Shown here one piece after another: positions 1 through 33,308 of a stretch of 64,000 nt of DNA. Position numbers and translations under genes: made by a program. Within the stretch, counting starts at the first letter, position 1. Each line of letters starts with the position of its first letter. A model generated the notes under the pieces. That model saw nothing but the letters and a program-made list of their open reading frames with translations, had not been told where the DNA came from and did not search any database. Where the stretch lies: NCBI GenBank assembly GCA_051010635.1, contig JBPCVJ010000022.1:38985-102984 (forward strand), written 5' to 3'. The stretch comes from Alphaproteobacteria bacterium (GTDB lineage Bacteria > Pseudomonadota > Alphaproteobacteria > JASGCL01).

Positions 1-833
1 TAAATCGGGCATTACAATTTTTTCTTGATATAAAAATTACTATTTTTTATCCAGTATTATTACAAGTTTTTGATTATTGGCAAGATAAGAAAACAATTAC
101 ACCTGAAGATGTCATTGCTATCATTGAAGAATTAGAAAATTTTTTATTCATACGCATGTTATATTTAGGAAGTCCAACAGCAGGTTTAAACAAACTAGTG
201 CTTTTTATTATTGGTAATATTGAGGATAACATTAACCGATCCTCTTACTTAAATATTTTATTATATTATTTACATGATCCTAATAATTATTATAATTATC
301 ATATAAATTACAAGGACGCTTCTTCTTTAGCAGAGGTAATAAAAAATTATCATTTTCAAGGATTTGAAAGATTGCGACCATTATTAAATAAATTGGAATA
401 TGATTTACAATTAAAAAAAGAATTTGTTGATGTTAATAATAACAATATATCCACTGAACATATTTTACCACAAAAAATTCCAGTCGGTTCGCAATGGGAA
501 AAAGATTTCGGTAAGAATGAAGGTGATGACCATATAGAATATTGCTATAAACTTGGCAATATGACCCTGACTGGTTATAATTCTGAATATTCTAATAACG
601 AATTTTCTGAAAAAAAATCATGCGAAAATGGTTTTGATAAAAGCCCCCTTGCACTAAATAGTTTTCTTAAACAATGCGACAAATGGACAAAGCAAGAAAT
701 AGATAAAAGAACCGCTGAATTAGCAGAAAAATTAGCCAAATTAATCTTTCCTAGAGAAAGTAATTATTCTCCTAAAATTATACTTAAAACCAAAACACTT
801 GATGAAAACGAGGACGAGGACGAGGACGAATAA
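1..833 (+). CDS. GmrSD-like DUF262/DUF1524 HNH nuclease, C-terminal part (5' end outside window)
   Basis: Frame is open from position 3 to the stop at 833. STEHILPQ...LGNMTL...NSEYSN is the DUF1524 HNH signature. AT-rich DNA. Confidence 0.8.
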   Translation, partial: NRALQFFLDIKITIFYPVLLQVFDYWQDKKTITPEDVIAIIEELENFLFIRMLYLGSPTAGLNKLVLFIIGNIEDNINRSSYLNILLYYLHDPNNYYNYHINYKDASSLAEVIKNYHFQGFERLRPLLNKLEYDLQLKKEFVDVNNNNISTEHILPQKIPVGSQWEKDFGKNEGDDHIEYCYKLGNMTLTGYNSEYSNNEFSEKKSCENGFDKSPLALNSFLKQCDKWTKQEIDKRTAELAEKLAKLIFPRESNYSPKIILKTKTLDENEDEDEDE

Positions 834-838
834 CCCCC

Positions 839-1447
839 TCAGCTCAACCCCCGTTCCAACTTGCCAATGATGTAAGATAGCCAATGGTAAAATTCTTCAG
901 CCTGTGGTATGCGGTTCACTATCGGTTCGTGAAAAATAATCATCAATACCAATAATAAAAATCCTGCCACTGCCAGCCCCAATAATAAACCAATAATGGT
1001 AAACCAATCCACCCTTCTGTGTGATGGCAAATAAGGGCTTTGGTTTTTCATCTTTTTTTTGAATGTTTTTAACCTATCTTGGTTGGCTTGATAGGTTTGA
1101 TAATCTGTATCGCTCATGCGTGATATATCCAATGATAACATATCATCATCTGCCGCATCATTAACAGCGGTGTTTTTTACAGCCGCCACAGGGGCGGGTA
1201 TTTCGCTTGGCATCTGCGGCAGATCATTTACATTTTTTGCCTTGCCCTTATCTTTTGCCATATCTTTTTCGACAAGATGGGGTTTGGCACTTGGGACATC
1301 GCTTGCCAATAACATACCCTTATTGGCTTGCCATTCATAAAAACAATAGGGGCAACGCACCCGCTGAAAACGGGTTGTCAAAAGACCCGATGCCACCGTG
1401 GCATTTTTTTGACAAGACGGGCAAGGTAATTTATAAATGGTTGCCAT
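839..1447 (-). CDS. MJ0042-type zinc-ribbon membrane protein
   Basis: N-terminal CPSC...VRCPYCFYEW, low-complexity linker, one C-terminal TM helix. Confidence 0.7.
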   Translation of the reverse strand: MATIYKLPCPSCQKNATVASGLLTTRFQRVRCPYCFYEWQANKGMLLASDVPSAKPHLVEKDMAKDKGKAKNVNDLPQMPSEIPAPVAAVKNTAVNDAADDDMLSLDISRMSDTDYQTYQANQDRLKTFKKKMKNQSPYLPSHRRVDWFTIIGLLLGLAVAGFLLLVLMIIFHEPIVNRIPQAEEFYHWLSYIIGKLERGLS

Positions 1448-1578
1448 ATATTTGTAATATAAATTTTTATTTTTTCGTTCGCATTATAGGTTCATTGCAA
1501 TTTTTTTGCCATTTGTTTTTTCTTGATTTTCGGTGAATAAAAAGACTATAGCAATCATAGCTATTTTAAATAAAAACA

Positions 1579-3570: not shown

Positions 3571-3625
3571 TTTACTTTGGCAAAAATTTTATATGATGAT
3601 GGCAAAAAATATAGCATAAAATATC

Positions 3626-4465: not shown

Positions 4466-4469
4466 TATT

Positions 4470-7605: not shown

Positions 7606-8541
7606 ATGTGGAAAAAATTGCGTGCCAAACATCATTTTGATTTTATCAAATACCGCCCTTGGCATGTTGGGTTGGCAGGGTTTATCATTCTTATTTCGGC
7701 AATTTTATTTTTTACCAAAGGGTTAAATTATGGCATTGATTTTAAGGGCGGGGTGTTATTAGAAATAAAAACTGCCCCCAACATCGGCATTGCCGATATT
7801 CGTGCCAAAACCGCATCTTTACCAGTGAAATCCTATTCATTACAAGAATTTGGCGCCCCTGATATTTTGCTGGTTAATATCGATAAAGATGAAACCGCAT
7901 CGCCCGAAACAATTTTACAACAGGCAAAAAATATCTATGGCGATTCGGTTTTGGAATATAGGCGGGTTGAAACGGTGGGGCCAGTGGTAGGAGATGAATT
8001 AAAAAAATCGGCTATCTGGGCAGTTTTGGCAGGTCTTTTGGTGATGTTTATCTATGTTTGGTTGCGTTTTGAATGGCAATTTGCTTTGGGCGGTATATTG
8101 GCATTGTTGCATGATGTGGCGGCTACCATAGGTTGGTTTTGTTTAAGCGGATTAGAATTTAATTTGGTATCGGTGGCGGCGCTTTTAACCATAGCGGGTT
8201 ATTCTATCAATGATACGGTGGTGATTTATGATAGGTTGCGTGAAAATATCCGCCTAACGCCAAAAAAACCTTTGAATGAATTGATGAATATTTCTATTAA
8301 CGCCACCCTATCACGCACCATCTTAACTGCCACCACAACCCTTATGTCAATGTTGGCACTTGCGATATTTGGCGGAGCGGCAATACAGGGTTTTGGTATA
8401 ACCATGGTGTTTGGCATTATTTTTGGCACCTATTCTTCCATCGCTTTATCTTTACCAGTGGTGGCTTATTTTCGCCCAAAATCTGCCAAAGGTATGCATG
8501 GCTATGGCGATTTATTTGTAAAAAAAGATAAACAACCATAA
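7606..8541 (+). CDS. secF: protein translocase subunit SecF
   Basis: GIDFKGG, VGPVVGDEL, GYSINDTVVIYDRLREN. Confidence 0.97.
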   Translation: MWKKLRAKHHFDFIKYRPWHVGLAGFIILISAILFFTKGLNYGIDFKGGVLLEIKTAPNIGIADIRAKTASLPVKSYSLQEFGAPDILLVNIDKDETASPETILQQAKNIYGDSVLEYRRVETVGPVVGDELKKSAIWAVLAGLLVMFIYVWLRFEWQFALGGILALLHDVAATIGWFCLSGLEFNLVSVAALLTIAGYSINDTVVIYDRLRENIRLTPKKPLNELMNISINATLSRTILTATTTLMSMLALAIFGGAAIQGFGITMVFGIIFGTYSSIALSLPVVAYFRPKSAKGMHGYGDLFVKKDKQP

Positions 8542-8564
8542 TCACATCGGCTATCATATTTATT

Positions 8565-8948
8565 ATGGATATTTTACCCCTTTCCAGTGATGGTAAATTT
8601 GCTATCTGTTCTTATGGTAGTGGCGGTTTTGTTATTAGAGACGACAAGGGGCAAGAGCAAGAATGGCAAGGTGCAATTTTTATCAAACCCGATGGGGTGG
8701 TGCCTATAACCTATAAAAAATTTGATGATATGAAATTAACAGAAATTATTCCCCTATTGCCATTAAAATTGGAATTGCTATTGATAGGTTGTGGCAACAA
8801 AATGACCATGCCAGATCGTCAAGAACAACAGCGTTGGCAAGTTTTAGCCAATGGTGTAGAATGGATGGCAACCGCCGCCGCGGCACGCACCTATCAAATC
8901 GCCATCGATGAAGGGCGATTGGCAGCCGCATTGTTATTGGCAATTTGA
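8565..8948 (+). CDS. Mth938-like (DUF498) protein
   Basis: SYGSGGF, LLLIGCG, MATAAAARTY..AIDEGRLAAALL; usual alphaproteobacterial neighbour of secF. Confidence 0.85.
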   Translation: MDILPLSSDGKFAICSYGSGGFVIRDDKGQEQEWQGAIFIKPDGVVPITYKKFDDMKLTEIIPLLPLKLELLLIGCGNKMTMPDRQEQQRWQVLANGVEWMATAAAARTYQIAIDEGRLAAALLLAI

Positions 8949-8958
8949 AAAAAATACC

Positions 8959-8990
8959 TTGCAGATTTTAGCGAATCATAAGATAAAAAT
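8959..8990 (+). promoter_or_regulatory. putative sigma70 promoter with GANTC site (TTGCAG-N8-GAATC)
   Basis: TTGCAG 8959-8964 and GAATC 8973-8977 directly upstream of the REase ATG. The -10 element is ambiguous. Confidence 0.4.
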
Positions 8991-8993
8991 ATT

Positions 8994-9827
8994 ATGTCGC
9001 CTTATCAAGATTTTATCAACCGACTAAAGTTATTAATAAAAAAAAATCCACAATTAATAACCACTACCTTAAGTAATATTTTCACTTGTCGCTTAATAGG
9101 TAATAAAACACATGGCGACCTATCAGAAATTGCAATAGCAGAATTTATTAATCAATTTATGTATGATTATCAAGCCATTCATGTTGGCAAAGATTTATTT
9201 CGTGCAAAAGATAAAGAACAAGATATAAAAATTAAAAATGAAATTACTGGCAATGAATTTCCCGTTAGCTTAAAAGCATATGGACTTGGTCCATTACAAT
9301 TATCAACCGATAAGAATAATACTATGTTTCCAGCATTGCAACCATTGAAAAACAAAACAACTGATAAAAAAACCATTGATAATTTATGGCAATTACCAGC
9401 CTTTAAAAACTTTGATGACATACATATTTTGCCGTTAATTTATGATGAAAAAGAATATAAATGCAATATTTTAATATTTAATACTTATAAAGCAAAAAAT
9501 AATACTAAAAGCGTTACTTTATTGACGAAAGGGCATGGACGCAAACATCCCGTTTATATATTTTTAGATAAAGATAAAAATTATATTTGTGAAGTTCGTT
9601 ATGGAGATAAGTCTGCTAATGCTTTACAAAGAGGTCTTTGGACAAATACTGAAAAAGCAATAGAATATTTTGATTCTTTAACAGACGGTTGGATAAGCTA
9701 TCAACAAAATAAAATTTTGGTACAATTTTTTTCTTATGCCTTAATTGCCACCACCGAGGGAATTGAATTAGCTACAGAGAAATTAAAAAATGATATTGAT
9801 GAACAAAAAAATAATTTAAATAAATAA
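8994..9827 (+). CDS. putative Type II restriction endonuclease
   Basis: AT-rich ORF 9 bp upstream of a DNA MTase; E...QDIKI...VSLK resembles a PD-(D/E)xK core. Confidence 0.65.
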   Translation: MSPYQDFINRLKLLIKKNPQLITTTLSNIFTCRLIGNKTHGDLSEIAIAEFINQFMYDYQAIHVGKDLFRAKDKEQDIKIKNEITGNEFPVSLKAYGLGPLQLSTDKNNTMFPALQPLKNKTTDKKTIDNLWQLPAFKNFDDIHILPLIYDEKEYKCNILIFNTYKAKNNTKSVTLLTKGHGRKHPVYIFLDKDKNYICEVRYGDKSANALQRGLWTNTEKAIEYFDSLTDGWISYQQNKILVQFFSYALIATTEGIELATEKLKNDIDEQKNNLNK

Positions 9828-9836
9828 AATAATATC

Positions 9837-10964
9837 ATGACAACAGAATTATCTACAAATTTATCAACAGAAACACCTTATCAGCTATCTGGTCAACCGT
9901 TGATAACTGAAGGCATTAAATACACTGGATCAAAAAAGAAACTCCTGCCACAAATTTTATCTTTAGTTGCTCAAATAAATCCAAACAGCATTTTTGATGG
10001 TTTTTCGGGAACAACAAGGGTATCGCAAGCTTTTGCACAATCTGGCTATCAAGTTATTGCCAATGATATTTCTATTTGGTCAGAAATTTTTGCCAATTGT
10101 TATCTGTTAAATAAACAACCAGCATCATATTATCAAAAAATGATAGATGAGCTTAATCATCTTAAACCAATGGCAGGGTGGTTTTCAGAACATTACGGCG
10201 GCTTACCATCAGCAATAAAAAAACCATGGCAAAAGCATAATACCATGAAGCTTGATGCCATCAGGCAAGAAATTGCTAATTGGCAATTAAACAAAATTGA
10301 AGAATCGGTTTTATTAACCAGTTTAATTCATGCCATGGATGCGGTAGACAGCACAATAGGACATTATGCCTCTTATTTGCATCATTGGTCAAAGCGTTCT
10401 TACAAAACAATGAAAATGAAAATGCCACATTTACATTTTTATAAAAAAAATCACATAGTGCAAAGACAAGATATTTTTTCTGCTATCAAAGAAGCAACTG
10501 TTGACTTGGCTTATTTTGATCCACCATATGGTTCAAATAATGAAAAAATGCCGCCATCACGAGTGCGTTATGCGGCTTATTATCATCTATGGAAGACAAT
10601 TATCCTAAACGATCGCCCCCATGTTTTTGGCAAATCGTCACGGCGATATGATTCATCGGATACCATAGCAGCTTCAGTATTTGAAGAATTTAGAAAAGAT
10701 GATGGAGGGCATTTTATTGCAGTTAATGCAATTAAAAAACTATTATGCGATACCCGTGCCAAATATATTTTGCTATCTTATAGTTCAGGCGGGCGAGCAA
10801 CCATTGATGAATTATATGATGCTATGGCTACAGCAGGCAAATTAAAAAAAATTGTAGAAATAGATTATCGTAAAAATGTCATGGCAGATATGACATGGAG
10901 CCAAAAATGGATAACAAATACCGCAACTCCTCATAAAGAATTTTTATTTTTGATTGAGAAATAA
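9837..10964 (+). CDS. N6-adenine DNA methyltransferase (Dam/D12 class, alpha motif order)
   Basis: KYTGSKKKL, FDGFSGT (motif I), YFDPPY (motif IV), LSYS. Confidence 0.9.
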   Translation: MTTELSTNLSTETPYQLSGQPLITEGIKYTGSKKKLLPQILSLVAQINPNSIFDGFSGTTRVSQAFAQSGYQVIANDISIWSEIFANCYLLNKQPASYYQKMIDELNHLKPMAGWFSEHYGGLPSAIKKPWQKHNTMKLDAIRQEIANWQLNKIEESVLLTSLIHAMDAVDSTIGHYASYLHHWSKRSYKTMKMKMPHLHFYKKNHIVQRQDIFSAIKEATVDLAYFDPPYGSNNEKMPPSRVRYAAYYHLWKTIILNDRPHVFGKSSRRYDSSDTIAASVFEEFRKDDGGHFIAVNAIKKLLCDTRAKYILLSYSSGGRATIDELYDAMATAGKLKKIVEIDYRKNVMADMTWSQKWITNTATPHKEFLFLIEK

Positions 10965-10967
10965 TTC

Positions 10968-12731: not shown

Positions 12732-12741
12732 AGGATAAAAA

Positions 12742-13521: not shown

Positions 13522-13546
13522 AAAAAATTCACACCAACAATTTTTT

Positions 13547-14638: not shown

Positions 14639-14648
14639 AATTATCCCC

Positions 14649-16314: not shown

Positions 16315-16349
16315 TTTTTTTTATAAGCATAGTTTGCTATAAAAAAAAT

Positions 16350-17090: not shown

Positions 17091-17093
17091 AAA

Positions 17094-17744: not shown

Positions 17745-17760
17745 AGATGGAGTTATTTTT

Positions 17761-18732: not shown

Positions 18733-18737
18733 GGTAT

Positions 18738-20561: not shown

Positions 20562-20629
20562 CTATTAAATTTTCAAAAAAGATAGCGGTGTTCGCTAATC
20601 AATGCAAATATATTTTATGACACAATAAC

Positions 20630-21130
20630 CTATGACAAAAACTCATCAACGATAAAAATAATTTTTTTAACCCTATCAATTTTAAGCATAGCAAAATCTT
20701 GAAAGGGCAAAAAATATTCAGCCTTTTTTGTATCATGAATAACCAAAATATCACCCGCCCCATAATTAACAAACCCTGCCACTTGACCAATGTTTTTTTT
20801 ATCTTTACCCACAACGGCAAACCCCAGCAGATCATGTTGATAATGCTGTTTTGGCGATAATGATGGCAAACATTGTCGGTTGATAAAAATATTATGATGC
20901 AAAATTTTTTCCACCGCATCGCGATTATCATAACCTTGCCATTTGGTCAAAAACCCACGATGCACCGCACGCCAATTTTCTATCACCATCACCTGCCCAT
21001 TTTTATCTTGCAATGGTTTTAAATCAAAAATAGCCATCGGCGGTTCGCTATAACTATAAAAATAACATTCGCCCTTTAACCCATGTGGTTTGCCGATGCA
21101 CCCCATCAACACAAGATTTTTCACCACCAT
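20630..21130 (-). CDS. rimM: ribosome maturation factor RimM
   Basis: IGKPHGLKGE, YQHDLLG, NYGAGDIL. Confidence 0.93.
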   Translation of the reverse strand: MVVKNLVLMGCIGKPHGLKGECYFYSYSEPPMAIFDLKPLQDKNGQVMVIENWRAVHRGFLTKWQGYDNRDAVEKILHHNIFINRQCLPSLSPKQHYQHDLLGFAVVGKDKKNIGQVAGFVNYGAGDILVIHDTKKAEYFLPFQDFAMLKIDRVKKIIFIVDEFLS

Positions 21131-21150
21131 TTTTTATAGGCTATCATCAA

Positions 21151-22353
21151 TTATTTAAAATAGCGTTTTTTCCATTCCTGTTCAAGAAAACTTGTCCAAT
21201 CGGGGTGCGGCTCGGGTAGTGTTTTTGCCTTGATAGGTTTTATTGCCGATACGCCCGCATTTTTCATAAATATATTTTTGTCAGCGGATTTTAATCGCCC
21301 CACATCAAGCACCGTTGGTTCGCCCCAAAATGCAGTATTGGTTTTGCGACCCTGTGCGATAGGCGATGATAAAAAATTAATAAAAACCATCGCCGCCTCT
21401 TTATTTTGGCTATTGAAAGGAATAGCCAAATAATGCTGATTGCTTAAAACACCACTATGCCAAATATATGTTTTCACCGATGGCGGCACGATTTTTTGTT
21501 TTATCGCCGCCGATGCCACCCCAGCATTATAAGAAAAACTTAAAGATAATTTTCCACGCGCAAACAATTTTAACAAATCAGATTCATTTTTGGGAAAATT
21601 TTTCCCCGCTTGCCAAAGATGCGGGTGAAGTTGGTCAAGATAATCCCAAAGAAATTTTGTTCTTTTTCTGGCAACCGCTTCATTCTTAAAAGATTTCTTA
21701 AAATAACGCTGCTTGCCATTTTTATGTGCCAAATCAAGCAACAGATGTTTTAAAAAAGCAACCCCAGTAAAATCAGGCGGTGTAGGGTAAGATAATTTGC
21801 CATGATGGTTTTTGGCAAATGATAATAATTCATCGGCAGTTTTTGGCGGGTTGGGCGTTTTTTTACTATCATAAACAAACACAAAATAGGCACGCCCCCA
21901 CGGCATTTCTAACCCATCAACCGCAATGGTAAAATCTTTTAACAAGGCGGGGTTTTGCCGCACCGATAGCAATTTATAATTGGGTAATTTTTTAATAAAG
22001 GGACCATACAGCAAGCGATTATCCTTCATGGTTTTAAAATTATTACCATTGATCCACAAAACATCGATCGCACCATTTTTTTTATTGCCCGCTTTTTTAT
22101 CGGTCAAAACTTGATTGACCGCTATAGCCGTATCGGTCAAACGCACATGTTTTACCCGCACCCCGTAAATCTGCCGCATCTGTTTTGCCGCCCAATTGAT
22201 ATAATTATTATAAAGTTCTGAACCACCCCATGCATTAAAATACACCGTCTGCCCACGGGCTTTTTTTAAGATATTATCAAAATTAGCTTTGGCTGTTGGG
22301 GCTAGCAATAAAAATAATAACCCGCACAAAAATGATATCCATAATTTCTTCAT
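21151..22353 (-). CDS. YnjB-like ABC transporter substrate-binding protein
   Basis: Signal peptide; ARGQTVYFNAWGG, DVLWING.NF, YPTPPDFTG..FLK, LPEPHPDW. Confidence 0.85.
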   Translation of the reverse strand: MKKLWISFLCGLLFLLLAPTAKANFDNILKKARGQTVYFNAWGGSELYNNYINWAAKQMRQIYGVRVKHVRLTDTAIAVNQVLTDKKAGNKKNGAIDVLWINGNNFKTMKDNRLLYGPFIKKLPNYKLLSVRQNPALLKDFTIAVDGLEMPWGRAYFVFVYDSKKTPNPPKTADELLSFAKNHHGKLSYPTPPDFTGVAFLKHLLLDLAHKNGKQRYFKKSFKNEAVARKRTKFLWDYLDQLHPHLWQAGKNFPKNESDLLKLFARGKLSLSFSYNAGVASAAIKQKIVPPSVKTYIWHSGVLSNQHYLAIPFNSQNKEAAMVFINFLSSPIAQGRKTNTAFWGEPTVLDVGRLKSADKNIFMKNAGVSAIKPIKAKTLPEPHPDWTSFLEQEWKKRYFK

Positions 22354-22447
22354 TGCCAAATTGGCTAGCAAATAACCGATGATTTTTCAAGATATTTTTT
22401 GTGGTAACTGAAAGCAAATAGAATGTTTTTTTTATTTAGGTTTTTTT

Positions 22448-24058
22448 TTAAACATCAAGTTCTACTTGATCTTTTTTAGAGGCTTCGGCTGATTTCAAAA
22501 CATCTTTTGTCATTGGTAAATTAATTCTTTTATTTGGGTCTTTTAATATGTCTTCTATGGTAACAATTTCAATTCGGTTAAATGGTGTATCGGTAAAAAG
22601 TGGATGAATAAATTTGCCCGCTACTTGCACTTCATCAAACATTGGTTTAGTTGGCGGTTCAAGGGTGATAAAAAAACCAATCTCTGCACCAAATTTTTTG
22701 CGGTCGTTATTAAAGGTTGCAATATCTTTTCGCCCTACCTTACCTGATTTAACTTGAAAAACAGCTTTTCCCTCTGTTGCTTTCTCTATGTAAAAATATG
22801 CTTCGCCATCAATTCCACCATCCGCTCCTTTTTTATCATTTATGATTGCCCGATTGTTTGTATAGGTAAGGATAGCCCATTTTTCAAATTCTTTTCTTAA
22901 CCTATCGTCTTTTTTATTTGCCAATGCTATTGCTGATACCATATCTGTTGGTATGCCATCAATTTTGATATTATTTTGTAATGCTTGCCATTTTTCATCG
23001 TTATGACAAGCATCTTCAAGGCGTTTTCTTATTAAACTGATTTGTTGATAACTTATATCAATCCCTATCCATTGGCGATGAAGTCGCTCGGCAACAGCTA
23101 CGGTTGTGCCACAACCACAAAAAGCATCCAGCACAACATCACCTTCTTTACTACTTGTTTTTATAATTCGTTCCATTAATTTTTCAGGTTTTTGCGTTTG
23201 TAAATCTAATGCTTCTATCGTATTTCCTTCTAATGCATTTATATCTTCCCATACATCATCTATTCTTACTCCTCCCTTATCTAATAAATATTGCTTAAAT
23301 TTTTCTTTGCCATTCTTATTTTTTACAATTTTATTCTCTTGTCTCATTTTTTCTATAGTTTCAGCACCATAATCTCTTAATTCTTGTAATCTATATTTGC
23401 CTCTGCCGTCATTATCATCATATTTATACAATTTTAATGTTGCCTCAGCATAAGGTCTGTGTGGCAATTCATAAAATTTATTTTGTTTTTTTTTATTTTT
23501 ACAATACAAAAAAATAATATCATGATTTCTAGGAAAAGATATTTTTGAACCATGTTTTGAAACATGACCCCTACGCCATATAATTTCATTCTTAAAATCA
23601 CCATCTTGAGAGCAAAAAATAGAATCAAGAATCAATTTAAGATAATGGCTAGCATTCGGATCGCAATGTAAATAAAAACTACCTGTCGGTTTTAGCACTC
23701 TATGAATTTCTATAAGCCGAATTGTCATAGCAACTAGATATGCCATAATATCGCCCTTACCCAAAACTTCAATTAACCCTTTTATTAGATAATATGTTCG
23801 CTTTGTAATTTTTTGTTTATTTACATTTTCAATATCTAAAAATTCTTTTAATTCTTTTTCTGCCCTATCGCCCCATTTCCAAGTATCAATAAATGCTCTT
23901 GCTTGTGCTCTATCAATTTCGCCTGCAACATTATTATAAATTTGATTATAGTCTCGTTTAGAATTGAATGGTGGGTCAATGTAACATAAATCCACCGATT
24001 CATCGGCTATTTTATCTCGCAAAATATCTAGGTTATCACCATAAAATAATTCTCTCAT
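22448..24058 (-). CDS. beta-class amino-methyltransferase fused to a C-terminal Mrr-like endonuclease domain
   Basis: LFYGDNL, YIDPPFNS (motif IV), TQKP, DAFCGCGTT (motif I), then GADGGIDG...QVKSG. ATG 24058 is preferred over TTG 24130. Confidence 0.85.
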   Translation of the reverse strand: MRELFYGDNLDILRDKIADESVDLCYIDPPFNSKRDYNQIYNNVAGEIDRAQARAFIDTWKWGDRAEKELKEFLDIENVNKQKITKRTYYLIKGLIEVLGKGDIMAYLVAMTIRLIEIHRVLKPTGSFYLHCDPNASHYLKLILDSIFCSQDGDFKNEIIWRRGHVSKHGSKISFPRNHDIIFLYCKNKKKQNKFYELPHRPYAEATLKLYKYDDNDGRGKYRLQELRDYGAETIEKMRQENKIVKNKNGKEKFKQYLLDKGGVRIDDVWEDINALEGNTIEALDLQTQKPEKLMERIIKTSSKEGDVVLDAFCGCGTTVAVAERLHRQWIGIDISYQQISLIRKRLEDACHNDEKWQALQNNIKIDGIPTDMVSAIALANKKDDRLRKEFEKWAILTYTNNRAIINDKKGADGGIDGEAYFYIEKATEGKAVFQVKSGKVGRKDIATFNNDRKKFGAEIGFFITLEPPTKPMFDEVQVAGKFIHPLFTDTPFNRIEIVTIEDILKDPNKRINLPMTKDVLKSAEASKKDQVELDV

Positions 24059-24061
24059 ATT

Positions 24062-24093
24062 GGTTATATGCAAAGATTCTATAATCATTGCAA
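24062..24093 (-). promoter_or_regulatory. putative promoter TTGCAA-N8-GAATC
   Basis: Minus strand TTGCAA (24093-24088), GAATC (24079-24075), then CATATAAC just before the ATG. Confidence 0.4.
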
Positions 24094-24194
24094 GCAAAAA
24101 AAAATCTTTAATCAAAACGGGTGTAAGCAAATTATTTTATAAATATTTCCGCTTGATTTCATTATGTGAATTTGGGAAGCTATAAAATATACCA

Positions 24195-24413
24195 ATGATA
24201 AAAAATTTTTTACATAAAACTTCAGCCAATGATATTTGGGTTATTTTGGGTGGAGGGTTGGCATTATTGATAATATGTTTGCTGGTGGCATTTATCATTG
24301 TGGTGGTGAAGTTTTTTATCAATTTGGTTATATTTATCATCACCTACCTTGGCATACCCATTGCGATAATAGCGGCTATTATGTGGTTGATGAAAAAAAA
24401 TCAATCATCATAA
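24195..24413 (+). CDS. small hydrophobic membrane protein
   Basis: 72 aa, about two TM helices, fills the intergenic gap. Confidence 0.55.
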   Translation: MIKNFLHKTSANDIWVILGGGLALLIICLLVAFIIVVVKFFINLVIFIITYLGIPIAIIAAIMWLMKKNQSS

Positions 24414-24422
24414 TTTTTTAAC

Positions 24423-24468
24423 TTGACAGGTTTTGGTGTTTGCTGTAAAAAATGTTCTTATTTTGTTT
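24423..24468 (+). promoter_or_regulatory. sigma70 promoter with LexA-box-like operator
   Basis: TTGACA 24423-24428, 17-nt spacer, TAAAAA; GTTC-N7-GTTT at 24454-24468 (alphaproteobacterial SOS box is GTTC-N7-GTTC). Confidence 0.5.
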
Positions 24469-24472
24469 TTTT

Positions 24473-24940
24473 ATGCAAAATCAATTTCACCACCAAACCC
24501 GCCATTTTGCCATTTGTTTTCATGGCAGTGCCCACCATTGGTGGCAAAGAATTTTGAAGAAAAAATTTCGCCATTGTTTTATGGTGATCGAACAACCAAA
24601 TGGCATTTGCCTAGTGGATGCAATGGCGCCGCACCTTAAATTGGTAATGTTTCCCAAACATTTATCTTTTTTGGCTATCATCAAGCATTATCGCAAAAAA
24701 AATTGTATCATTTGGCAAAAAAAATTTTTACCAAGCAGGGATATAAACCAGCACAAAAAAACATCAGCCAATTTGCATCGGCATATTTTTACAAAATGGT
24801 TTTTACCATATTTGCCAAGGTTTGGCATATATTCTTGTGTATCGGTTATAAAATCTTTTTTGAATTTGCGCCAACCTTTTGTCATCACCCCTTGGCAATT
24901 ATATCAATCATTGGAAAAAATCTATGCACCAAAAGATTGA
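24473..24940 (+). CDS. hypothetical protein with possible permuted papain-like His/Cys motif
   Basis: FRHCF...LVD...YSCVSVIK...ITPWQLY; ATG 24473 lies downstream of the predicted promoter. Confidence 0.6.
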   Translation: MQNQFHHQTRHFAICFHGSAHHWWQRILKKKFRHCFMVIEQPNGICLVDAMAPHLKLVMFPKHLSFLAIIKHYRKKNCIIWQKKFLPSRDINQHKKTSANLHRHIFTKWFLPYLPRFGIYSCVSVIKSFLNLRQPFVITPWQLYQSLEKIYAPKD

Positions 24941-24965
24941 CATTTTTTTTTATCAAGTATAAGAT
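24937..24965 (+). promoter_or_regulatory. sigma70 promoter of speB
   Basis: TTGACA-N17-TAAGAT with a T9 run in the spacer. Confidence 0.6.
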
Positions 24966-24984
24966 AAAAAAAACCAATCACTAG

Positions 24985-26004
24985 ATGGCAAAAAAGCAAT
25001 ATTATTTTGAACGAAAACCATTGCCACCCAGCAATGCCCCCGCCGCCAAACAGATTGATGGTGGCGACCAAGCTTTTCGTGCATCGGAAAATTTAGGGCG
25101 CAATCTTGAACAAACTTGGGCGGGGGCATTATCATTTTGTCGCCGCCGTTATAGCCGAGACCTAAAAGGGGTGGATGTTGCTGTATCGGGCATACCGCTT
25201 GATTTGGCGGTAACCTATCGCCCTGGCACCCGCTTAGGACCACGCGGTGTGCGTGCCGCATCGGTGCAGTTGGCAGAATTAGATGCCCACCCTTTTCGCT
25301 TTGACCCTTTTTCACATTTGGCGGTGGTGGATTATGGCGATTGCGAATTGGTGTTTGACCATGCCGATACCATACCCGCATCAATTGAAGACCATATTTA
25401 TAATATCATCAGCCAAGGGGTAAAATCGGCAACCATTGGCGGCGATCATTTTATTACCTATCCTATTTTGCGTGCCCACCATAGGGTGCATGGGCAGGTT
25501 GCCCTGTTGCAATTTGATGCCCACCCCGACACTTGGCCTGATGATGGCAAACAGATGAATCACGGCACCATGTTTACCCGTGCCATTCAAGATAAATTAA
25601 TCATTCCCGAAAAATCTTTACAAGTAGGCATAAGAACCGTTGCCCCCGAATATGGCATCAAAACCATCACTGCCGATGAGGTGCATGATGTGGGGGTGGC
25701 AGGGGTATTGAAAGCCATAGGCGATACCATTGGCGACACCCCATGTTATTTAACTTTTGACATTGATTGCCTAGACCCAAGCCATGCCCCAGGCACTGGC
25801 ACACCGGTTGCGGGCGGGCTGACATCACGCGAGGCATTAAAAATCATTCGTGGTTTTCAAACTATCAAAGGGTTAAATATCGTCGGTTGCGATATGGTGG
25901 AGGTATCACCGCCATTTGATATATCAGAAATAACTTCTTTGGCGGGGGCGCATATATTGCACGACATCATTTGCCAATGGGCTTGGCAAAAAATTGATGG
26001 GTGA
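24985..26004 (+). CDS. speB: agmatinase / ureohydrolase
   Basis: RPGTRLGP, GGDH, FDAHPD, FDIDCLDP..APGTGTP, VEVSP. Confidence 0.9.
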   Translation: MAKKQYYFERKPLPPSNAPAAKQIDGGDQAFRASENLGRNLEQTWAGALSFCRRRYSRDLKGVDVAVSGIPLDLAVTYRPGTRLGPRGVRAASVQLAELDAHPFRFDPFSHLAVVDYGDCELVFDHADTIPASIEDHIYNIISQGVKSATIGGDHFITYPILRAHHRVHGQVALLQFDAHPDTWPDDGKQMNHGTMFTRAIQDKLIIPEKSLQVGIRTVAPEYGIKTITADEVHDVGVAGVLKAIGDTIGDTPCYLTFDIDCLDPSHAPGTGTPVAGGLTSREALKIIRGFQTIKGLNIVGCDMVEVSPPFDISEITSLAGAHILHDIICQWAWQKIDG

Positions 26005-26032
26005 TTGGCATTATTTTTGCTTTGTCTAGATC

Positions 26033-26668
26033 ATGGATAAATTACTAGCCGATGTTGTTAAAGACTATAGCTTAGGTAAAAGCAATTTTATTAAAAAACT
26101 TAATACATATTCAAAAGAAAATTTAAATAAAATATTATCGGATATAATAACCCATTACTTCAACGATAAAAACTCTTCATATTTACGGGAATATATCACG
26201 GCTATTATGGCTGGCTACACCCCATCCAATGCAAAATTGGGCTATAATGGATATAAAACAAACGGAGGAGAAATAACTGCCTGCGAGATAAAACCCGCAA
26301 ATTGTTTATCTAATAGCAGTCAAATAAGAAAATTACGGGGATCTGGAAACTTCAGTGATTATACATGGGCTAGGTTTGCAAAAGATAAAAAAGCTAACCC
26401 GATGATTCTAATAAGTGGATTTGTTGATGGAATTCTTGTTTTTATTCTAGAAATACCATTTGCAAGCAAAGGAATCTGTGATAGATTAGAGAGGCAATTA
26501 AAGAGAATACTACCAAATGGTGATATGCCAAGAAATTATGTAAGAAGTGCTCAATTTACTTATAAAGACTATTTAAATAACGCAAAAAAAAAATACTTAA
26601 CAAACGATATAAATAAATTTAAAAATTATTTTACAAAAAAATTTTTTGATGAATTAATAAAAAAATGA
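26033..26668 (+). CDS. putative Type II restriction endonuclease
   Basis: AT-rich; overlaps the MTase start (ATGA); GYNG...CEIKP resembles a PD-(D/E)xK variant. Confidence 0.65.
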   Translation: MDKLLADVVKDYSLGKSNFIKKLNTYSKENLNKILSDIITHYFNDKNSSYLREYITAIMAGYTPSNAKLGYNGYKTNGGEITACEIKPANCLSNSSQIRKLRGSGNFSDYTWARFAKDKKANPMILISGFVDGILVFILEIPFASKGICDRLERQLKRILPNGDMPRNYVRSAQFTYKDYLNNAKKKYLTNDINKFKNYFTKKFFDELIKK

Positions 26669-27519
26669 CCAAAAACTCTTTCAAATTTTTAAAAGGCAAT
26701 AGCTTACAACTATTACAGGACTTGCCTAATAATTTATTTGATGCTGGCGTAACATCACCCCCCTATAATAAACAAGAAAACAAAAAGGGCTGGTTAGTAA
26801 AAAATGTAAAATATGACAATGCAAGCGATAAAAAAAATGAAAATAATTATCAAAGCGAACAGATAGCGGTCTTGAATGAATTATATAGAATTATCAAGCC
26901 TGGCGGTTCTTTTTTCTATAATCATAAAATCAGATGGGAAAAAGGTGATATGCTTCACCCAATAGCGTGGTTATCAAAAACAAATTGGACAATTCGTCAA
27001 GAAATTATTTGGGACAGAATTATTGCGGCGAATATAAGGGGATGGAGATTTTGGCAAATTGACGAAAGAATCTATTGGCTGTATAAGCCAAAAAATAATC
27101 ATAAAATAGGTGATGAACTAGAATCAAGACATGCAAAAATGACTTCTGTTTGGCGATTCCCGCCCGAAAGAAAAAACGGACACCCTGCACCATTCCCGCT
27201 ATTATTACCGCTTCGCTGTTTATATTCTGTTATGCCAAATAAAAATGGGCTTGTTATTGACCCATATGTAGGTAGCGGGACAACACTTGTTGCCGCCAAA
27301 ATACTAGGTCATGGCGGACATGGAATAGATATTTCTGGGGATTATATAATAAAAGCAAAAAATAGACTTGATAAATATTTAATGGAAAAAGAAAATGCTA
27401 ATAAAGAAATTTCTTTGCATAAAGTTTTAGATACTTTCAAAAATAAAAAAGAAAATGGCTATCGCGTCGGTAAATTTGCCCCCAATATTTCTTTTATGCA
27501 AAATGAATTAAGCCTTTAA
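26665..27519 (+). CDS. beta-class N4-cytosine/N6-adenine DNA methyltransferase
   Basis: VTSPPYN (motif IV), HPAPFP, DPYVGSGTT (motif I). Confidence 0.9.
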   Translation: MTKNSFKFLKGNSLQLLQDLPNNLFDAGVTSPPYNKQENKKGWLVKNVKYDNASDKKNENNYQSEQIAVLNELYRIIKPGGSFFYNHKIRWEKGDMLHPIAWLSKTNWTIRQEIIWDRIIAANIRGWRFWQIDERIYWLYKPKNNHKIGDELESRHAKMTSVWRFPPERKNGHPAPFPLLLPLRCLYSVMPNKNGLVIDPYVGSGTTLVAAKILGHGGHGIDISGDYIIKAKNRLDKYLMEKENANKEISLHKVLDTFKNKKENGYRVGKFAPNISFMQNELSL

Positions 27520-27590
27520 TTTGCTTTGCTAACATAATCTTTACACTTATCAACAAAAAAGCCAATAACACCCACCATACAAAAAAACCC

Positions 27591-30114
<2,524 letters not shown>

Positions 30115-30257
30115 ATATGCGATTTTTTTTTAAGAATAAAATTTGCCCAATTATTACAATATTTTTATGGCTGGCGCAAGCCAATTTTCAGCTTGCGATT
30201 TTTTATTTTTTTGCCTAAAAGGTTTTGATATAAAAAACCATCATCAGATTAAAAAAA

Positions 30258-30665
30258 ATGCGTTCCAACATTCACCCCGAATACCACGAAATAACCATTG
30301 AAACCACCAATGGCATGGAATATAAAACCCGATCTACTTGGGGCAAGGCGGGGGATAAAATGAAATTAGAAATTGACCCTGATACCCACCCCGCATGGAC
30401 CGGCGGCACACAAAAAATTTTGGAGGGCGGGCAAGTGGCAAGGTTTGGCAGGCGTTTTCAAGGCAAAAGTTTTAGCCAGATGACACCAACCCCGCAAGAT
30501 AATTCGGCTGGCAATAAACCACCAAAACCCACAGCAAAACCACAGGTGAAAAAAGAAGAGGTTAAACCGAATGCTGATGAGAAAGATAAAATGGAGTCAA
30601 AACCCGAAGCCAAAACGGATAATAAAGCGACCGCTGAAGCAAAGGATGTAGGCGGAGAAGATTAA
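30258..30665 (+). CDS. rpmE: 50S ribosomal protein bL31 with long C-terminal extension
   Basis: [10 protein letters not shown]...HPAWTGG...GQVARF, followed by about 65 low-complexity residues. Confidence 0.93.
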
Positions 30666-30669
30666 AATT

Positions 30670-30936
30670 ATGCGTTTATATCATAAAGAAATTCATCAGA
30701 CTATGTTGCCATATAAAGGGAAAACTCTTAAAACTGGATACATTATTGGGCAAGTTATGCAAGCACACAACCTTGATAAATCAGAGAGAAAGTGGATTCA
30801 ACCATCTGACCATTGCGATAACAATGATGCCCCAAGTATCAAAAGAAAATCAACATGGTGGTGTGATAAGTGTCGTGATGATTCCTCTAATGCTATTTTT
30901 CATAAAATAGACAGAGGCATATATCAAGTTAGATAA
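30670..30936 (+). CDS. small hypothetical protein with His/Cys cluster
   Basis: 88 aa, starts 4 nt after rpmE; PSDHCDNN...CDKC...IFHKIDRGIYQVR; island-like codon use. Confidence 0.65.
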   Translation: MRLYHKEIHQTMLPYKGKTLKTGYIIGQVMQAHNLDKSERKWIQPSDHCDNNDAPSIKRKSTWWCDKCRDDSSNAIFHKIDRGIYQVR

Positions 30937-30947
30937 AAAAAGATAAA

Positions 30948-32813
30948 TTATTTAATAATCTTGGGGTCAAATACCCAGATTTTATAGGCTTGTTCAGCTA
31001 AAGATTCTGCCCTGTCTTTGATTGCATCATCATTCCACAATTTATGTTTTTTGGGATATTCTAAAAACTCATTAATCGCTTTTATCAAATTATTATCCGC
31101 AATTTTTTTTGCATTAATATTTAATGAAGAATCTTTTTTTATAATATCAGATAATATTTTATATTTTTTTTCTGGCATATCATTACCCATATCATCATTA
31201 TTAACAGGTTTTGGCAGAATTAATAAATTACCTATATTATCTACCAAAGAATCATCTTTTAATTTTCTAGCTCTAGATTCATTAGGGCTTTGGGGATACC
31301 AATGCTCAATTTCATTTTCTTTAGCTTTGCTCTTGCTATAACGAAAAGAAACATTATACATTTTATGAAACATATATCTTATAATTTCACGCTTCGAACC
31401 CGCTAATTCAAAATCTACAAATTTTGATATAAATACTTCCTCTGCTGTTATATTATCTTGTAATTCGTTAAATAATTTTTTTGTTGTTGTTAAAAAATCA
31501 TCTTTATTTTTTGCCTCACTATATTCTTTAGCAGAATTAGCATAAATTTTTTCAACCAAATTGGCTCGTGTTTTACAGATAGCAGAATTTATAAAATGAT
31601 AATTTCTAATTTGTTCAAAAAATTCAATTATATATTCGTCATCAATTTTTTTTCTATCAGCAAAATTAATTACCGAATAAAATAAAGGAATAACTTGCGA
31701 AACCCCAAAAATACGGCAAGCCAATATAGAATCTAAAATTTTATTTATAGAAGATTCATTATCAGCGGTAATTTTTTTATATTCTTCACCAAAAAGATAT
31801 GTTTCTATTTCTTCACGATTGCCTTTGGTAGCTCTTCTATAAAATTCAGAAAAATCTTTTAATTCATCGACCAGTTTGGGTGCGTTTCTTTTATCAGTAA
31901 CTATTTTGCTTAATTCTTTATAAAGAGCACTCTTTCCAATATAACCTTCTTTAGTCATATAAAAATATCTTAACATTTTAACAATGGTAGATTTAATATT
32001 TGTTTCACTAGATGGTTCGGCATTTTTTTCAATAATTTTCCATTCATCTTGAATATTTGCAATATCTTTAGAAAAAAGATTATTTTTTAATTTTTCAGAA
32101 ACCGTCAACTCTATACCACGCGCATTTGTTTTTTCAAAAATAGGAAAAATTTCACTTGCCTTTTCAATCTCAATATAAACAATACGCGCCTTAATAGCGG
32201 CTCGATAAATTTTATAAATATCTTCGTAATCATATTCTCTCATTTCATCTATAAATATTTCATAGATTGGTTTAATTTTTTTATTAGGCTTTTTAAGGCT
32301 TTTGCCATCAGCATCTTTGTCTTTAAACTTTCTATCCCATGACTTTTTTGCCATAATGTCAAAGGTTGGCTTAATTTTTTCTGATGGTATAAGTCGGGCA
32401 TAATTAGTTTCTTCCCCTACTTCATCATGAATAATAATATATTTTTGTATCATACTAATTAATTTTCTTGCCTTGTCATTATCATCTTCTTTAGCAATAA
32501 TTGCCAAACACTCCCTACAAGCAATCAAAAGCAACATAAGACTGGTTATCCGTTGTTGCCCATCAACAATTTCTATTATTTCAAACTGACTTTCTGCATC
32601 TCTTTTTTTATCATCCCCTATTGGTCTATAAAAAATCATTGTGCCGAGAAATAATGATTCTTCACTATCTTGCAAATCATCAATAAGCTCCTCAGCAGCC
32701 TCTTCATCCCAAACAAATTCTCTTTGAGAATCGGTTAAGGTGTAATGGCATTCCTTGAGGTCTTGGTTACCCTCCAAAATATCATGTATGGTTGTTCTTT
32801 CAACAACTTTCAT
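30948..32813 (-). CDS. GmrSD-like DUF262-DUF1524 (Type IV-like) nuclease
   Basis: SQREFVW, IVDGQQRIT, FEKTNARG (DUF262); IEHWYPQ...NIGNLLIL...N (HNH); ATG 32813 preferred. Confidence 0.88.
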   Translation of the reverse strand: MKVVERTTIHDILEGNQDLKECHYTLTDSQREFVWDEEAAEELIDDLQDSEESLFLGTMIFYRPIGDDKKRDAESQFEIIEIVDGQQRITSLMLLLIACRECLAIIAKEDDNDKARKLISMIQKYIIIHDEVGEETNYARLIPSEKIKPTFDIMAKKSWDRKFKDKDADGKSLKKPNKKIKPIYEIFIDEMREYDYEDIYKIYRAAIKARIVYIEIEKASEIFPIFEKTNARGIELTVSEKLKNNLFSKDIANIQDEWKIIEKNAEPSSETNIKSTIVKMLRYFYMTKEGYIGKSALYKELSKIVTDKRNAPKLVDELKDFSEFYRRATKGNREEIETYLFGEEYKKITADNESSINKILDSILACRIFGVSQVIPLFYSVINFADRKKIDDEYIIEFFEQIRNYHFINSAICKTRANLVEKIYANSAKEYSEAKNKDDFLTTTKKLFNELQDNITAEEVFISKFVDFELAGSKREIIRYMFHKMYNVSFRYSKSKAKENEIEHWYPQSPNESRARKLKDDSLVDNIGNLLILPKPVNNDDMGNDMPEKKYKILSDIIKKDSSLNINAKKIADNNLIKAINEFLEYPKKHKLWNDDAIKDRAESLAEQAYKIWVFDPKIIK

Positions 32814-32852
32814 AAAAATTGCTTTAAACAATTTTATGAAAAAGATCAACCC

Positions 32853-33308
32853 TTAATTGATATTCTCCATCTCATAAACAACCCATTTTCTCTCTCTTAA
32901 AAAATCATCTTTGTCATATTCAAATAAACGCAAACTAATTCTGTGTTCTTGTTGGGCAAACTGGATACAAAAAATATTCTTAATTTTTTTATAATTTTCA
33001 TAATAATAACAAACATCAAACATTTTTTGAAAAAATTTTTCTAAACTGGTTTTTTTGCCATCGGCAATAATATAAATATCATTATCATATTCAACAATAA
33101 TGGGAATTTGTAAAATTCGCTTTTTAATTTTAACTTCATCAGGTAAATAAATATTCAAACGGGCATCTTGGTCAATCCCTATAAAATTATGTAAAATTTT
33201 TTGATTATTAATAAATGAAAAAATATTATCATCAATTACATTATCAAGCATCGCTGGCTGGTAATGCCATTTTTCTATTTGGAAAGCGGTCTCCATAATC
33301 TTCATCAT
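32853..33308 (-). CDS. hypothetical protein
   Basis: 151-aa ORF with its own predicted promoter; no recognised motif. Confidence 0.6.
   Translation of the reverse strand: MMKIMETAFQIEKWHYQPAMLDNVIDDNIFSFINNQKILHNFIGIDQDARLNIYLPDEVKIKKRILQIPIIVEYDNDIYIIADGKKTSLEKFFQKMFDVCYYYENYKKIKNIFCIQFAQQEHRISLRLFEYDKDDFLRERKWVVYEMENIN

Follow-up and report, generated by a model that had tools for sequence, protein, structure and literature searches.

How does a small genome come to hold restriction enzymes one by one between its core genes, with no mobility gene in sight? The question is raised by a 64-kb stretch of DNA from an uncultured alphaproteobacterium, C22:38985-102984 (hereafter the window), on a 104-kb contig (C22) of a draft assembly that comprises 1.42 Mb in 40 contigs with 39% GC and 99.6% completeness (G000). 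A preliminary description, made from the letters alone, had placed six restriction-modification (R-M)-type loci in the first 33 kb and none in the last 30 kb. It had proposed that this lineage keeps a distributed arsenal exchanged by homologous recombination through conserved flanking genes. Pfam and PADLOC profiles, together with a predicted fold for the endonuclease of locus 5, identified all six as R-M or type IV loci. In a profile search, 28 of the 28 main open reading frames (ORFs) at 34.9-63.8 kb matched housekeeping families only, and the last 30 kb are indeed free of such loci. To our knowledge, a layout in which R-M loci are wedged singly between essential genes, without mobile machinery, is unusual for Alphaproteobacteria. 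The best explanation overall, in which we place moderate confidence, is a genome-wide archipelago of one- to three-gene cassettes of type II, type IIG, fusion and type IV kinds, which have been gained, swapped and lost without integrases.

Six restriction-type loci at gene boundaries

The cassettes of the window arose separately from one another; every one of them is foreign in composition and lies exactly at a gene boundary. Cargo genes have a GC content of 0.25-0.35 and a GC content at third codon positions (GC3) of 0.17-0.27, compared with 0.35-0.49 and 0.32-0.45 in core genes. AGA accounts for 50% of the arginine codons in cargo and 11% in core genes, GGA for 22% and 5% of the glycine codons; the early impression of AT-richer cassettes with more GGA and AGA codons was thus borne out by the counts. 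So was the impression that gaps to core genes are often only a few to tens of base pairs: most sides measure 3-76 bp (3, 5, 11, 16, 28, 45, 68, 71 and 76 bp), argS starting 3 bp after the stop codon of the locus 2 methylase, and two gaps are longer (193 and 321 bp). The 321-bp gap, to the right of locus 4 (24131-24451), appears to hold a short, very hydrophobic ORF of fewer than 80 aa from about position 24196. Successive cassettes are separated by one to nine core genes and do not form a contiguous defence island; essential genes such as argS, secDF, ctaCD and rpmE stand between neighbours. The best paralogue identity of any cargo gene in the window is 31-37%, without recent internal duplicates, and the GmrSD genes of loci 1 and 6 gave no blastp match to each other at 1e-10. 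The cassettes are therefore of independent origin.

The preliminary description had seen no integrase, transposase or tRNA gene beside the loci and had pointed to an integrase just outside the window as a finding that would change the picture. We found no tRNA gene in the 64-kb window, no recombinase gene anywhere on the 104-kb contig and no att-type repeats at the cassette borders, which does not correspond to islands borne by integrases or transposases.

By gene content, loci 2 and 5 fit type II R-M systems (Table 1). At locus 2 a REase_II protein adjoins a separate D12 methylase; this endonuclease had no tblastn match in the three congener regions and none among plasmids. At locus 5 a protein of PvuII-like predicted fold stands next to an N6_N4 methylase, the two genes overlapping by 4 bp. 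The family of the 211-aa protein is rare, with 17 homologues that share 43-49% identity, and E85 and K87 are invariant in it. Its AlphaFold2 model (pLDDT 80.4, pTM 0.79) retrieved PvuII chains only among the top 10 Foldseek matches (probability 0.97-1.00, best E 5e-4), with TM-scores normalised to PvuII of 0.29-0.63, the two lowest being against engineered double-length single-chain PvuII. Most probably, it is a restriction endonuclease of PvuII-like fold.

A classical type I system was ruled out for locus 3, as no HsdR-like ORF was found at or near 17.7-20.6 kb; in PADLOC the type I methylase models scored far below the IIG models. The larger protein has an N-terminal part of about 290 aa followed by a gamma-class N6 methylase. 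The locus thus reads as a type IIG enzyme, with putative nuclease and methylase in one chain, plus a separate S subunit, an arrangement which we take to resemble BcgI. The Mrr_cat match of the locus 4 fusion is partial, covering profile positions 26-90 of 115. At loci 1 and 6, GmrSD_N (DUF262) and a C-terminal GmrSD_C (DUF1524, HNH-type) are present in one protein, as for type IV GmrSD. Locus 1, of which the preliminary description had only the tail, is a three-gene AT-rich islet that also bears a 181-aa ORF of no known function upstream of the GmrSD gene. Reading frames are unbroken at all six loci and, the partial Mrr_cat match aside, profile matches run over nearly their full length; the window cassettes contain no simple-repeat tracts of the phase-variation kind except an A10 run at 26584-26593.

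Table 1. Features of the window and related genes. Plain coordinates are window positions; C-numbers are contigs of G000 and L-numbers genome regions, L010 being the upstream region that bears the whole locus 1 gene
Feature	Position	Strand	Assignment and evidence
Locus 1, part in window	3-833 (feature 1..833)	+	C-terminal part of GmrSD type IV restriction gene; GmrSD_C 1e-21; PADLOC Orf5/HEC-06
Locus 1, whole gene	L010:18003-19817		604 aa, begins 981 bp before the window; GmrSD_N and GmrSD_C both present
Locus 1, upstream partner	L010:16325-17371		Type II methylase; MTase_II PDLC03280 6.4e-52
Locus 2, endonuclease	8994-9827	+	REase_II PDLC03568 2.4e-112 over full length; GC 0.273, GC3 0.176
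Locus 2, methylase	9837-10964	+	D12-class N6-adenine methylase; MethyltransfD12 1.6e-25; MTase_II PDLC03342 1.8e-138
Locus 3, specificity subunit	17761-18732	-	Methylase_S 4.3e-28 in 2 stretches; Specificity_II PDLC03594 and PDLC03591; two target-recognition domains
Locus 3, type IIG restriction-methylase	18738-20561	-	REase_MTase_IIG PDLC03608 3.1e-106, residues 35-603; N6_Mtase
Locus 4	22448-24130	-	Single-chain N6_N4 methylase with Mrr-type nuclease domain; N6_N4_Mtase 3.7e-43, Mrr_cat 4.2e-06
Locus 5, probable endonuclease	26033-26668	+	211 aa; no Pfam or PADLOC match; PvuII-like predicted fold
Locus 5, methylase	26665-27519	+	N6_N4 (beta-class); N6_N4_Mtase 3.4e-29; PADLOC MTase_II
Locus 6, small ORF	30670-30936	+	88 aa, no family match; GC 0.345; AGA 4/6 Arg codons; no congener tblastn match
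Locus 6, GmrSD	30948-32849	-	Full-length type IV (modification-dependent); GmrSD_N 1.2e-29, GmrSD_C 3.3e-13, HEC-06 9.3e-48
Locus 6, second ORF	32853-33308	-	151 aa, no family match; GC 0.254, most AT-rich in the window; no congener match
Methylase-T5orf172 family, G000	C36:76292-78938; C16:11860-14753; C29:5611-6897; C2:108348-109622		N6_N4 methylase with C-terminal T5orf172 (GIY-YIG-like) domain
Methylase-T5orf172 family, relatives	G001 L001:17441-18688; G002 L008:13602-14849; G003 L147:7537-8778		Same family
Tandem units in SPOR-domain gene	13159-13248		Three 30-nt units (70-100% alike) encoding an Ala/Ser/Lys-rich repeat
rpmE	30258-30665		L31, 135 aa; Pfam domain residues 1-68, long C-terminal tail
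rpsF	33502-33933		S6, 143 aa; Pfam domain 16-106, long C-terminal tail
rplI	34189-34923		L9, 244 aa; Pfam domains 1-147, long C-terminal tail

The arsenal across the genome

The pattern extends upstream of the window and over the whole genome. On C22, further single islets lie upstream: a 618-aa Mrr-type methyl-directed enzyme, a T5orf172/PDC-S57 gene and a type II endonuclease truncated where the contig begins. The start of the window together with about 10 kb upstream of it is the densest stretch, a loose archipelago inside a genome that is already dense. Low GC content (<0.335) marked 137 ORFs of at least 90 aa, and the 121 outside C22 were scanned against Pfam (E<=1e-6). R-M domains were detected in 30 of these 121, comprising MmeI-like and Eco57I-like IIG enzymes, a type ISP enzyme, a type III pair, an EcoRI-type methylase and GmrSD, as well as MunI, TdeIII, CfrBI and DpnII-like endonucleases with methylases. 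Five carried other defence-linked domains (Fic, NYN, SocA, DUF3800, DUF2130) and 42 had no Pfam match. The remainder were surface-glycosylation genes (GT2, DUF6056), TPR or DUF805 proteins and a few AT-rich core genes; none of the 121 had a transposase or integrase domain.

G000 was compared with three congeners (G001, G002, G003) and one family-level relative (G004) (Table 2). It contains about 30 methylase-bearing loci, not counting a CcrM-like gene conserved in all five genomes and a PrmC-like frame; 15 have a recognisable nuclease gene or domain and six more are methylase-T5orf172 fusions. Together with six loci of type IV kind and five others (three solitary T5orf172 genes, a DUF3800 gene and an NYN-domain gene), the defence-type loci total 41. 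Across 121 sampled genomes of the class with a completeness of 90% or more, G000 ranks first for PF01555 matches at E<=1e-20 (19, followed by 13, 11, 9 and 8), and such matches are absent from 25 genomes; the comparators include one unpublished genome, G044, with a single match. Genome-wide family searches revealed few broken R-M copies in G000, and no Cas1.

Table 2. Restriction-type families and four-base palindromes in G000 and its relatives. Family values are six-frame profile matches, not gene counts; palindrome values are observed/expected (O/E) ratios with a maximal-order Markov expectation, those of the relatives from 57-100 kb each
Quantity	G000	G001	G002	G003	G004
PF01555 (N6_N4 methylase) matches	24	4	11	5	15
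N6_Mtase matches	7	4	2	4	9
D12 matches	6	4	4	3	5
C5 methylase matches	0	1	0	0	1
GmrSD_N matches	6	0	2	1	6
Mrr_cat matches	4	0	0	0	2
ACGT O/E	0.05	0.68	0.89	0.57	0.00
GGCC O/E	0.11	0.49	0.72	0.56	0.02
GTAC O/E	0.15	0.17	0.03	0.20	0.06
CCGG O/E	0.15	0.02	0.84	0.02	0.29
GATC O/E	0.29	0.26	0.04	0.13	0.13
TCGA O/E	0.31	0.81	0.87	0.86	0.02
GCGC O/E	0.32	0.80	0.86	0.82	0.91
CGCG O/E	0.42	1.08	0.98	1.07	0.90

Conventional mobile elements were sought as chosen families in a draft assembly, a type of assembly from which repeated elements can drop out. Phage_integrase had exactly two matches in each of the five genomes, presumably XerC and XerD. Matches above the family cut-off for rve, DDE_Tnp_1, TnpB, Transposase_mut or HK97 capsid were not found in G000 or the congeners, the lone hit at E<=0.001 among these five families being a sub-threshold rve in G001 (23 bits, one internal stop). 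The only resolvase-like match in G000 is partial (C18:24013-24390, profile positions 40-143). At C38:16628-18050, one of the two Xer-like recombinase genes is directly beside a methylase-like frame.

Some members of the arsenal deserve separate mention. The six methylase-T5orf172 paralogues of G000 are 53-68% identical to the G001 copy and include two tandem pairs; three lie at contig ends. The type ISP enzyme at C8:18513-23191 (Type_ISP_C 3.6e-93) is apparently split, a 333-aa Mrr_cat frame preceding a frame of 1259 aa, either by a frameshift in the gene or by an assembly error. In G001 (L003:14271-16020), a HaeIII-family endonuclease (5.2e-98) adjoins a D12-class adenine methylase, both with 0.32-0.34 GC in a genome of 46% GC; this pairing is odd for a GGCC-type enzyme family.

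Loss of palindromes is a classic mark of long exposure to changing type II systems. In G000, 11 of the 16 four-base palindromes have an O/E below 0.7, compared with 2.5% of non-palindromic 4-mers. The near-erased set differs by species, while GTAC and GATC are depleted in all five genomes. The AT-rich ORFs of G000 avoid palindromes like its core genes (ACGT 0.06, GGCC 0.10, CCGG 0.13), which points either to long residence of the cargo or to an entry filter that lets in only site-poor DNA. As no C5 methylase was detected in G000, sites containing C would need protection by N4-methylcytosine. Palindrome spectra of this kind could serve to predict the specificities of resident enzymes.

Variable intervals and exchange through flanking genes

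The congener regions examined have 46-50% GC and the congener genomes 1.6-1.7 Mb, G000 being the smallest in the genus. Congener ArgS is 74% identical to that of G000. Over 12 syntenic core proteins, G000 shares 74-75% identity with the others, G001 and G002 share 78%, and G001 and G003 96%; in the resulting tree, (G000,(G002,(G001,G003))), G000 is the first to branch. Gene order from GT28 to rpmE is conserved across the congeners; the intervals holding the six loci are compared in Table 3. G004 was tried as a synteny outgroup and rejected, only argS matching within 60 kb around it.

Table 3. Content of the six intervals in the genus
Interval	G000	G001	G003	G002
VIT1-unk202	Locus 1	Genes abut (empty)	Not assessed	Breakpoint
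DUF498-argS	Locus 2	Same D12 methylase (71% identical) and opposite-strand DUF3800 gene instead of endonuclease	As G001	146-bp gap
tsaB-rimM	Locus 3	rimI	rimI	rimI
SBP-unk162	Locus 4	About 840 bp	About 840 bp	Rearrangement breakpoint
speB-ctaD	Locus 5	Methylase-T5orf172 fusion	Glyoxalase	Both
rpmE-next gene	Locus 6, then rpsF	331-aa unknown, then UDG	UDG	cobU

Five of the six intervals are empty or otherwise filled in the congeners, and speB-ctaD shows four states in four genomes. Identical cassettes fixed in all relatives, the outcome for which the preliminary description had suggested looking in orthologous intervals, were not seen. Genes of all or most congeners are missing in G000 at 17745-20629 (rimI), 26005-27590 (glyoxalase) and 30115-30257 (MAPEG), and the relatives' versions of these three have no tblastn match anywhere in G000. 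Since rimI and glyoxalase are kept by the relatives, the state of G000 at loci 3 and 5 is derived, and the two cassettes each took the place of a dispensable resident gene. Gene loss and cassette gain went together in the smallest genome of the genus. A congener gene of 289-305 aa between unk279 and GT2 is also absent at its place in G000 (4466-4469). Synteny breaks off at three of the six sites, at locus 6 relative to all three congeners. The block from EamA to cobU (34941-51288) is inverted relative to G002 C33:39401-56836; the inversion ends at locus 6 on one side and between cobU and a MoCF gene on the other, a place without any defence gene.

Exchange through flanks could be tested in the pair G001/G003 only, with one case on either side. 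At the DUF498-argS site the DUF3800 genes of this pair share 78% protein identity and a synonymous identity of 0.61 (61 sites). In 14 of 15 comparison genes synonymous identity is 0.76-0.91 (0.79 and 0.88 for the DUF3800 neighbours), the exception being rimI with 0.68 (40 sites). This is suggestive of a DUF3800 allele imported by recombination inside conserved flanks, as such a swap would show. Beside a 1.2-kb indel, the rpmE-MAPEG stretch is 82-87% identical between G001 and G003; MAPEG itself (protein identity 0.79, synonymous 0.74) is third lowest of 16 genes, after DUF3800 and rimI. The speB-ctaD difference gave no such flank signal. In G000, ComEC and DprA are present.

Several results weigh against the archipelago explanation as worded above, or against exchange as its driving process. 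The D12 methylase of locus 2 has diverged from the orthologues that G001 and G003 carry in this interval by about as much as core genes have, and is therefore an old vertical resident. The methylase-T5orf172 proteins of G001 and G002 are 92.8% identical (core proteins 78%), but their four-fold synonymous identity of 0.51 lies within the core range of 0.38-0.58, synonymous sites being saturated as in core genes, and a recent transfer between the two was therefore rejected. At speB-ctaD this gene, too, is an old resident, under strong purifying selection; its conservation equals that of CtaD, more than is usual among restriction-type genes, which suggests that it has been domesticated or has become essential. 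Because these two residents, in place since the genus began, are still AT-rich (GC3 0.24 for the D12 methylase), AT-richness does not date acquisition here, which calls for caution. G003 lacks the fusion at speB-ctaD and carries an 87%-identical copy between other core genes, where DNA of G001 and G003 is generally about 92-96% identical. Over 43 kb compared between these two genomes, the DNA on either side of the speB-ctaD difference is 94-97% identical, with no sign of flank divergence, and differential deletion from a G002-like ancestor with both genes is enough to account for it.

Further points on the same side concern rooting, sampling and entry. The tree was rooted by G004 ArgS alone (support 0.887). 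Where a cassette displaced no gene, it takes as few steps to assume a gain in G000 as one loss shared by the other three. None of the six loci has a pair of direct or inverted repeats on its two sides, the repeats found being 70-89% AT-rich matches that lie elsewhere. Close relatives were not found in the metagenome collection searched (TsaB without match; 474 relatives for SpeB, the best 56% identical). Two sequencing runs of one study, labelled cave metagenome, contain the stretch and are perhaps the source data of the assembly; their short contigs contain no clean empty-site junction, three joints with sides of 21-30 nt probably stemming from paralogues, and give no evidence for or against presence/absence polymorphism. 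AT-rich islets at contig ends, tried as a proxy for strain variability, were too weak a signal (22 of 80 ends against an expected fraction of 0.198). No secretin or PilB/PilT/VirB11-type ATPase scored above the family cut-off in the genus, and no HK97 capsid of gene transfer agent type was found in G000 or the congeners. The function of the cassette enzymes is deduced from their sequences. In a simulation with 41 loci placed randomly on contigs, a maximum of six per 33 kb had a P of 0.03 and of eight per 43 kb a P of 0.002, values to be read with the list having been compiled by the analyst and the window sizes picked after viewing the data. A replication landmark behind this clustering was rejected, as GC skew on C22 tracks gene strand with no origin or terminus switch.

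Taken together, the preliminary proposal holds in part. An arsenal that is dispersed, free of recognisable mobility genes and variable in its intervals was confirmed, and ComEC/DprA and the DUF3800 allele are in keeping with exchange by homologous recombination. Against this stand the vertical D12 and methylase-T5orf172 genes, the differential deletion that fits speB-ctaD and the failure to find a pilus or secretin. Flank recombination is accordingly partly supported, by one suggestive case in relatives.

Explanations and known systems

Under the archipelago explanation, the methylases would shield the chromosome while cognate or fused nucleases would cut unmethylated incoming DNA, and the GmrSD enzymes would cut modified phage DNA. 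The lineage-specific purging of palindromes would reflect long action of such enzymes on genomes of the family. Cassettes might turn over by recombination in flanking DNA, by plain deletion and by occasional illegitimate insertion tied to rearrangement, slowly on the scale of species, given that some cassette genes have been in place since the genus began. They could persist through phage defence and through the lethality of losing a methylase while its nuclease lasts. A bolder proposal, possible but in our view doubtful, is that the family is a second independent lineage of the Helicobacter type under intense, shifting type II restriction that has nearly erased palindromes (O/E 0.00-0.05). 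Genes would then be gained by an undescribed route, either with R-M cassettes as autonomous units or by pilus-free ComEC/DprA uptake, the resident enzymes admitting only site-purged DNA.

The breakpoints bring up a different explanation, namely that R-M cassettes are themselves mobile, as in the Kobayashi model and in Endomicrobium Rs-D17. Nuclease-promoted break-induced or illegitimate insertion would then cause the deletions, substitutions and inversions, and flanks would play a minor part. Three of six sites at breakpoints, displaced rimI and glyoxalase genes and the failure to find conventional mobile elements in G000 agree with this, and precedents are described in PMC4760077 and in PMC2853133 (Furuta et al. 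2010), the latter linking R-M genes to insertion with long target duplication, to allelic substitution and to inversions. We judge it unlikely, since neither long target duplications nor flanking inverted repeats are present, the breakpoints cannot be placed on the G000 lineage, and the other inversion endpoint, at cobU, is without an R-M gene. The search for long target duplications (direct repeats >30 bp) found no bracketing pair at the cassettes, the empty sites of the relatives being too diverged to align. That the arsenal is mostly ancestral to the genus, lost once in the ancestor of the other three and kept by G000, we hold to be quite improbable. In its favour, G000 branches first, which makes one loss no costlier to assume than one gain, the D12 methylase can be shown to be old, AT-richness lasts in old resident cassette genes, and avoidance of GTAC and GATC is common to the five genomes. 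Nevertheless, rimI and glyoxalase, conserved in the relatives and missing from G000, mark G000 as derived at these places. It is also the smallest genome and yet has 2-6 times more methylase matches than the congeners, and it avoids ACGT, GGCC, TCGA, GCGC and CGCG far more strongly than they do.

Were the cassettes remnants of integrative elements, phages or plasmids whose integrases and backbones were deleted in streamlining, one would expect relics. The genome is strongly reduced and gene-dense, and the same families do occur on mobile DNA: 27 plasmid records cover at least 80% of the IIG enzyme, and 28 records of temperate phages at least 80% of the methylase-Mrr fusion of locus 4, the latter at 36-40% identity. 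Identities of the cargo to plasmid and phage copies are only 36-41% overall, and no recent donor was sampled; for the IIG enzyme, the nearest homologues among 5.8 billion proteins are 71, 68 and 67% identical, followed by a cloud at 55-60% from bacteria and archaea. With no tRNA, att-like repeat or integrase fragment at the six sites, clean removal would have been needed about 40 times without a recognisable relic, which makes this origin very improbable. Hardly any credence is due to an artefact in which mis-assembly or mis-binning attached foreign AT-rich DNA to contigs of core genes, even for a 40-contig draft from metagenome-type data. Contigs of the two runs, possibly the source data themselves, cover all 30 bins of 8500-28000, cassettes and flanks alike, and bridge four cassette-core junctions with 0-2 mismatches (10160-10984, 10223-11255, 20331-21484 and 21624-22560). 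The junctions are in-frame and tight, cargo ORFs share the palindrome avoidance of the host, and the methylase of locus 2 holds its place in the gene order of two other genomes.

The archipelago explanation therefore remains the one we prefer. What makes the genome noteworthy is a record methylase load within the class sample, species-specific palindrome purging and no visible route of gene entry. It offers a transposon-free setting in which to study how defence genes enter and leave a streamlined genome, and it is a compact source of probably intact restriction enzymes, with a rare PvuII-fold family and several methylase-nuclease fusions among them. Literature searches, judged from listings, returned no prior report of an R-M-rich reduced alphaproteobacterium or of its palindrome avoidance. 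According to the survey of Oliveira et al. (2014; PMC4176335), Alphaproteobacteria, reported as poorest in R-M systems among the large proteobacterial classes, have less than one R-M system per Mb and Helicobacter 11.8 systems per genome; a 1.42-Mb member with about 30 methylase loci and several four-base palindromes almost gone breaks that R-M-poor rule, as far as the survey states it.

Helicobacter pylori, and also Neisseria and Haemophilus, resemble G000 in combining a small genome with many R-M systems that stand singly among core genes, vary, are linked to rearrangements and go with avoided palindromes. Helicobacter, Neisseria and Haemophilus are naturally competent by means of a known uptake machine. 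Unlike Helicobacter, G000 has no secretin or pilus/type IV secretion system (T4SS) ATPase that we could find, and its window cassettes have no repeat tracts apart from the A10 run. Defence islands and core defence hotspots (cDHS) share with it a regional enrichment between core genes, here eight loci in 43 kb. In Pseudomonas aeruginosa such hotspots are described as unbroken blocks in which defence genes take up a median of 6-26 kb (PMC10250203), whereas in G000 core genes part every cassette from the next. Hotspots free of mobile genetic elements (MGE) diversify by recombination at flanking core genes, as set out by Oliveira et al. (2017; PMC5635113), and are defined within species from many genomes with measured flank recombination. 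G000 is like them in having accessory genes between conserved core genes, without integrases and with content that varies among relatives; it differs in the comparison being between species, in its many small sites and in that one of the two testable polymorphisms showed no flank signal.

Another parallel is Candidatus Endomicrobium trichonymphae Rs-D17, a termite-gut symbiont for which Zheng et al. (2015; PMC4760077) report 1.13 Mb, 18 R-M systems and five solitary methylases, without transposons or prophages. According to that report, its R-M genes lie at insertions and rearrangements, are foreign in composition and scarce in a free-living relative, and 16 of the 18 systems are inactivated as pseudogenes. 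G000 is likewise reduced and rich in R-M genes of foreign composition, has no conventional mobile elements that we found, has sites at rearrangements and has relatives with fewer such genes. It differs in that its window cassettes look intact, in its unexpected class and in that an intracellular life is not indicated; a search for ATP/ADP translocase, a marker of that life, gave no match but was uninformative, the control also matching nothing. The kind of genome is thus already known from Helicobacter, Endomicrobium Rs-D17 and the MGE-free hotspots, and G000 adds to it a new member in an unexpected class.

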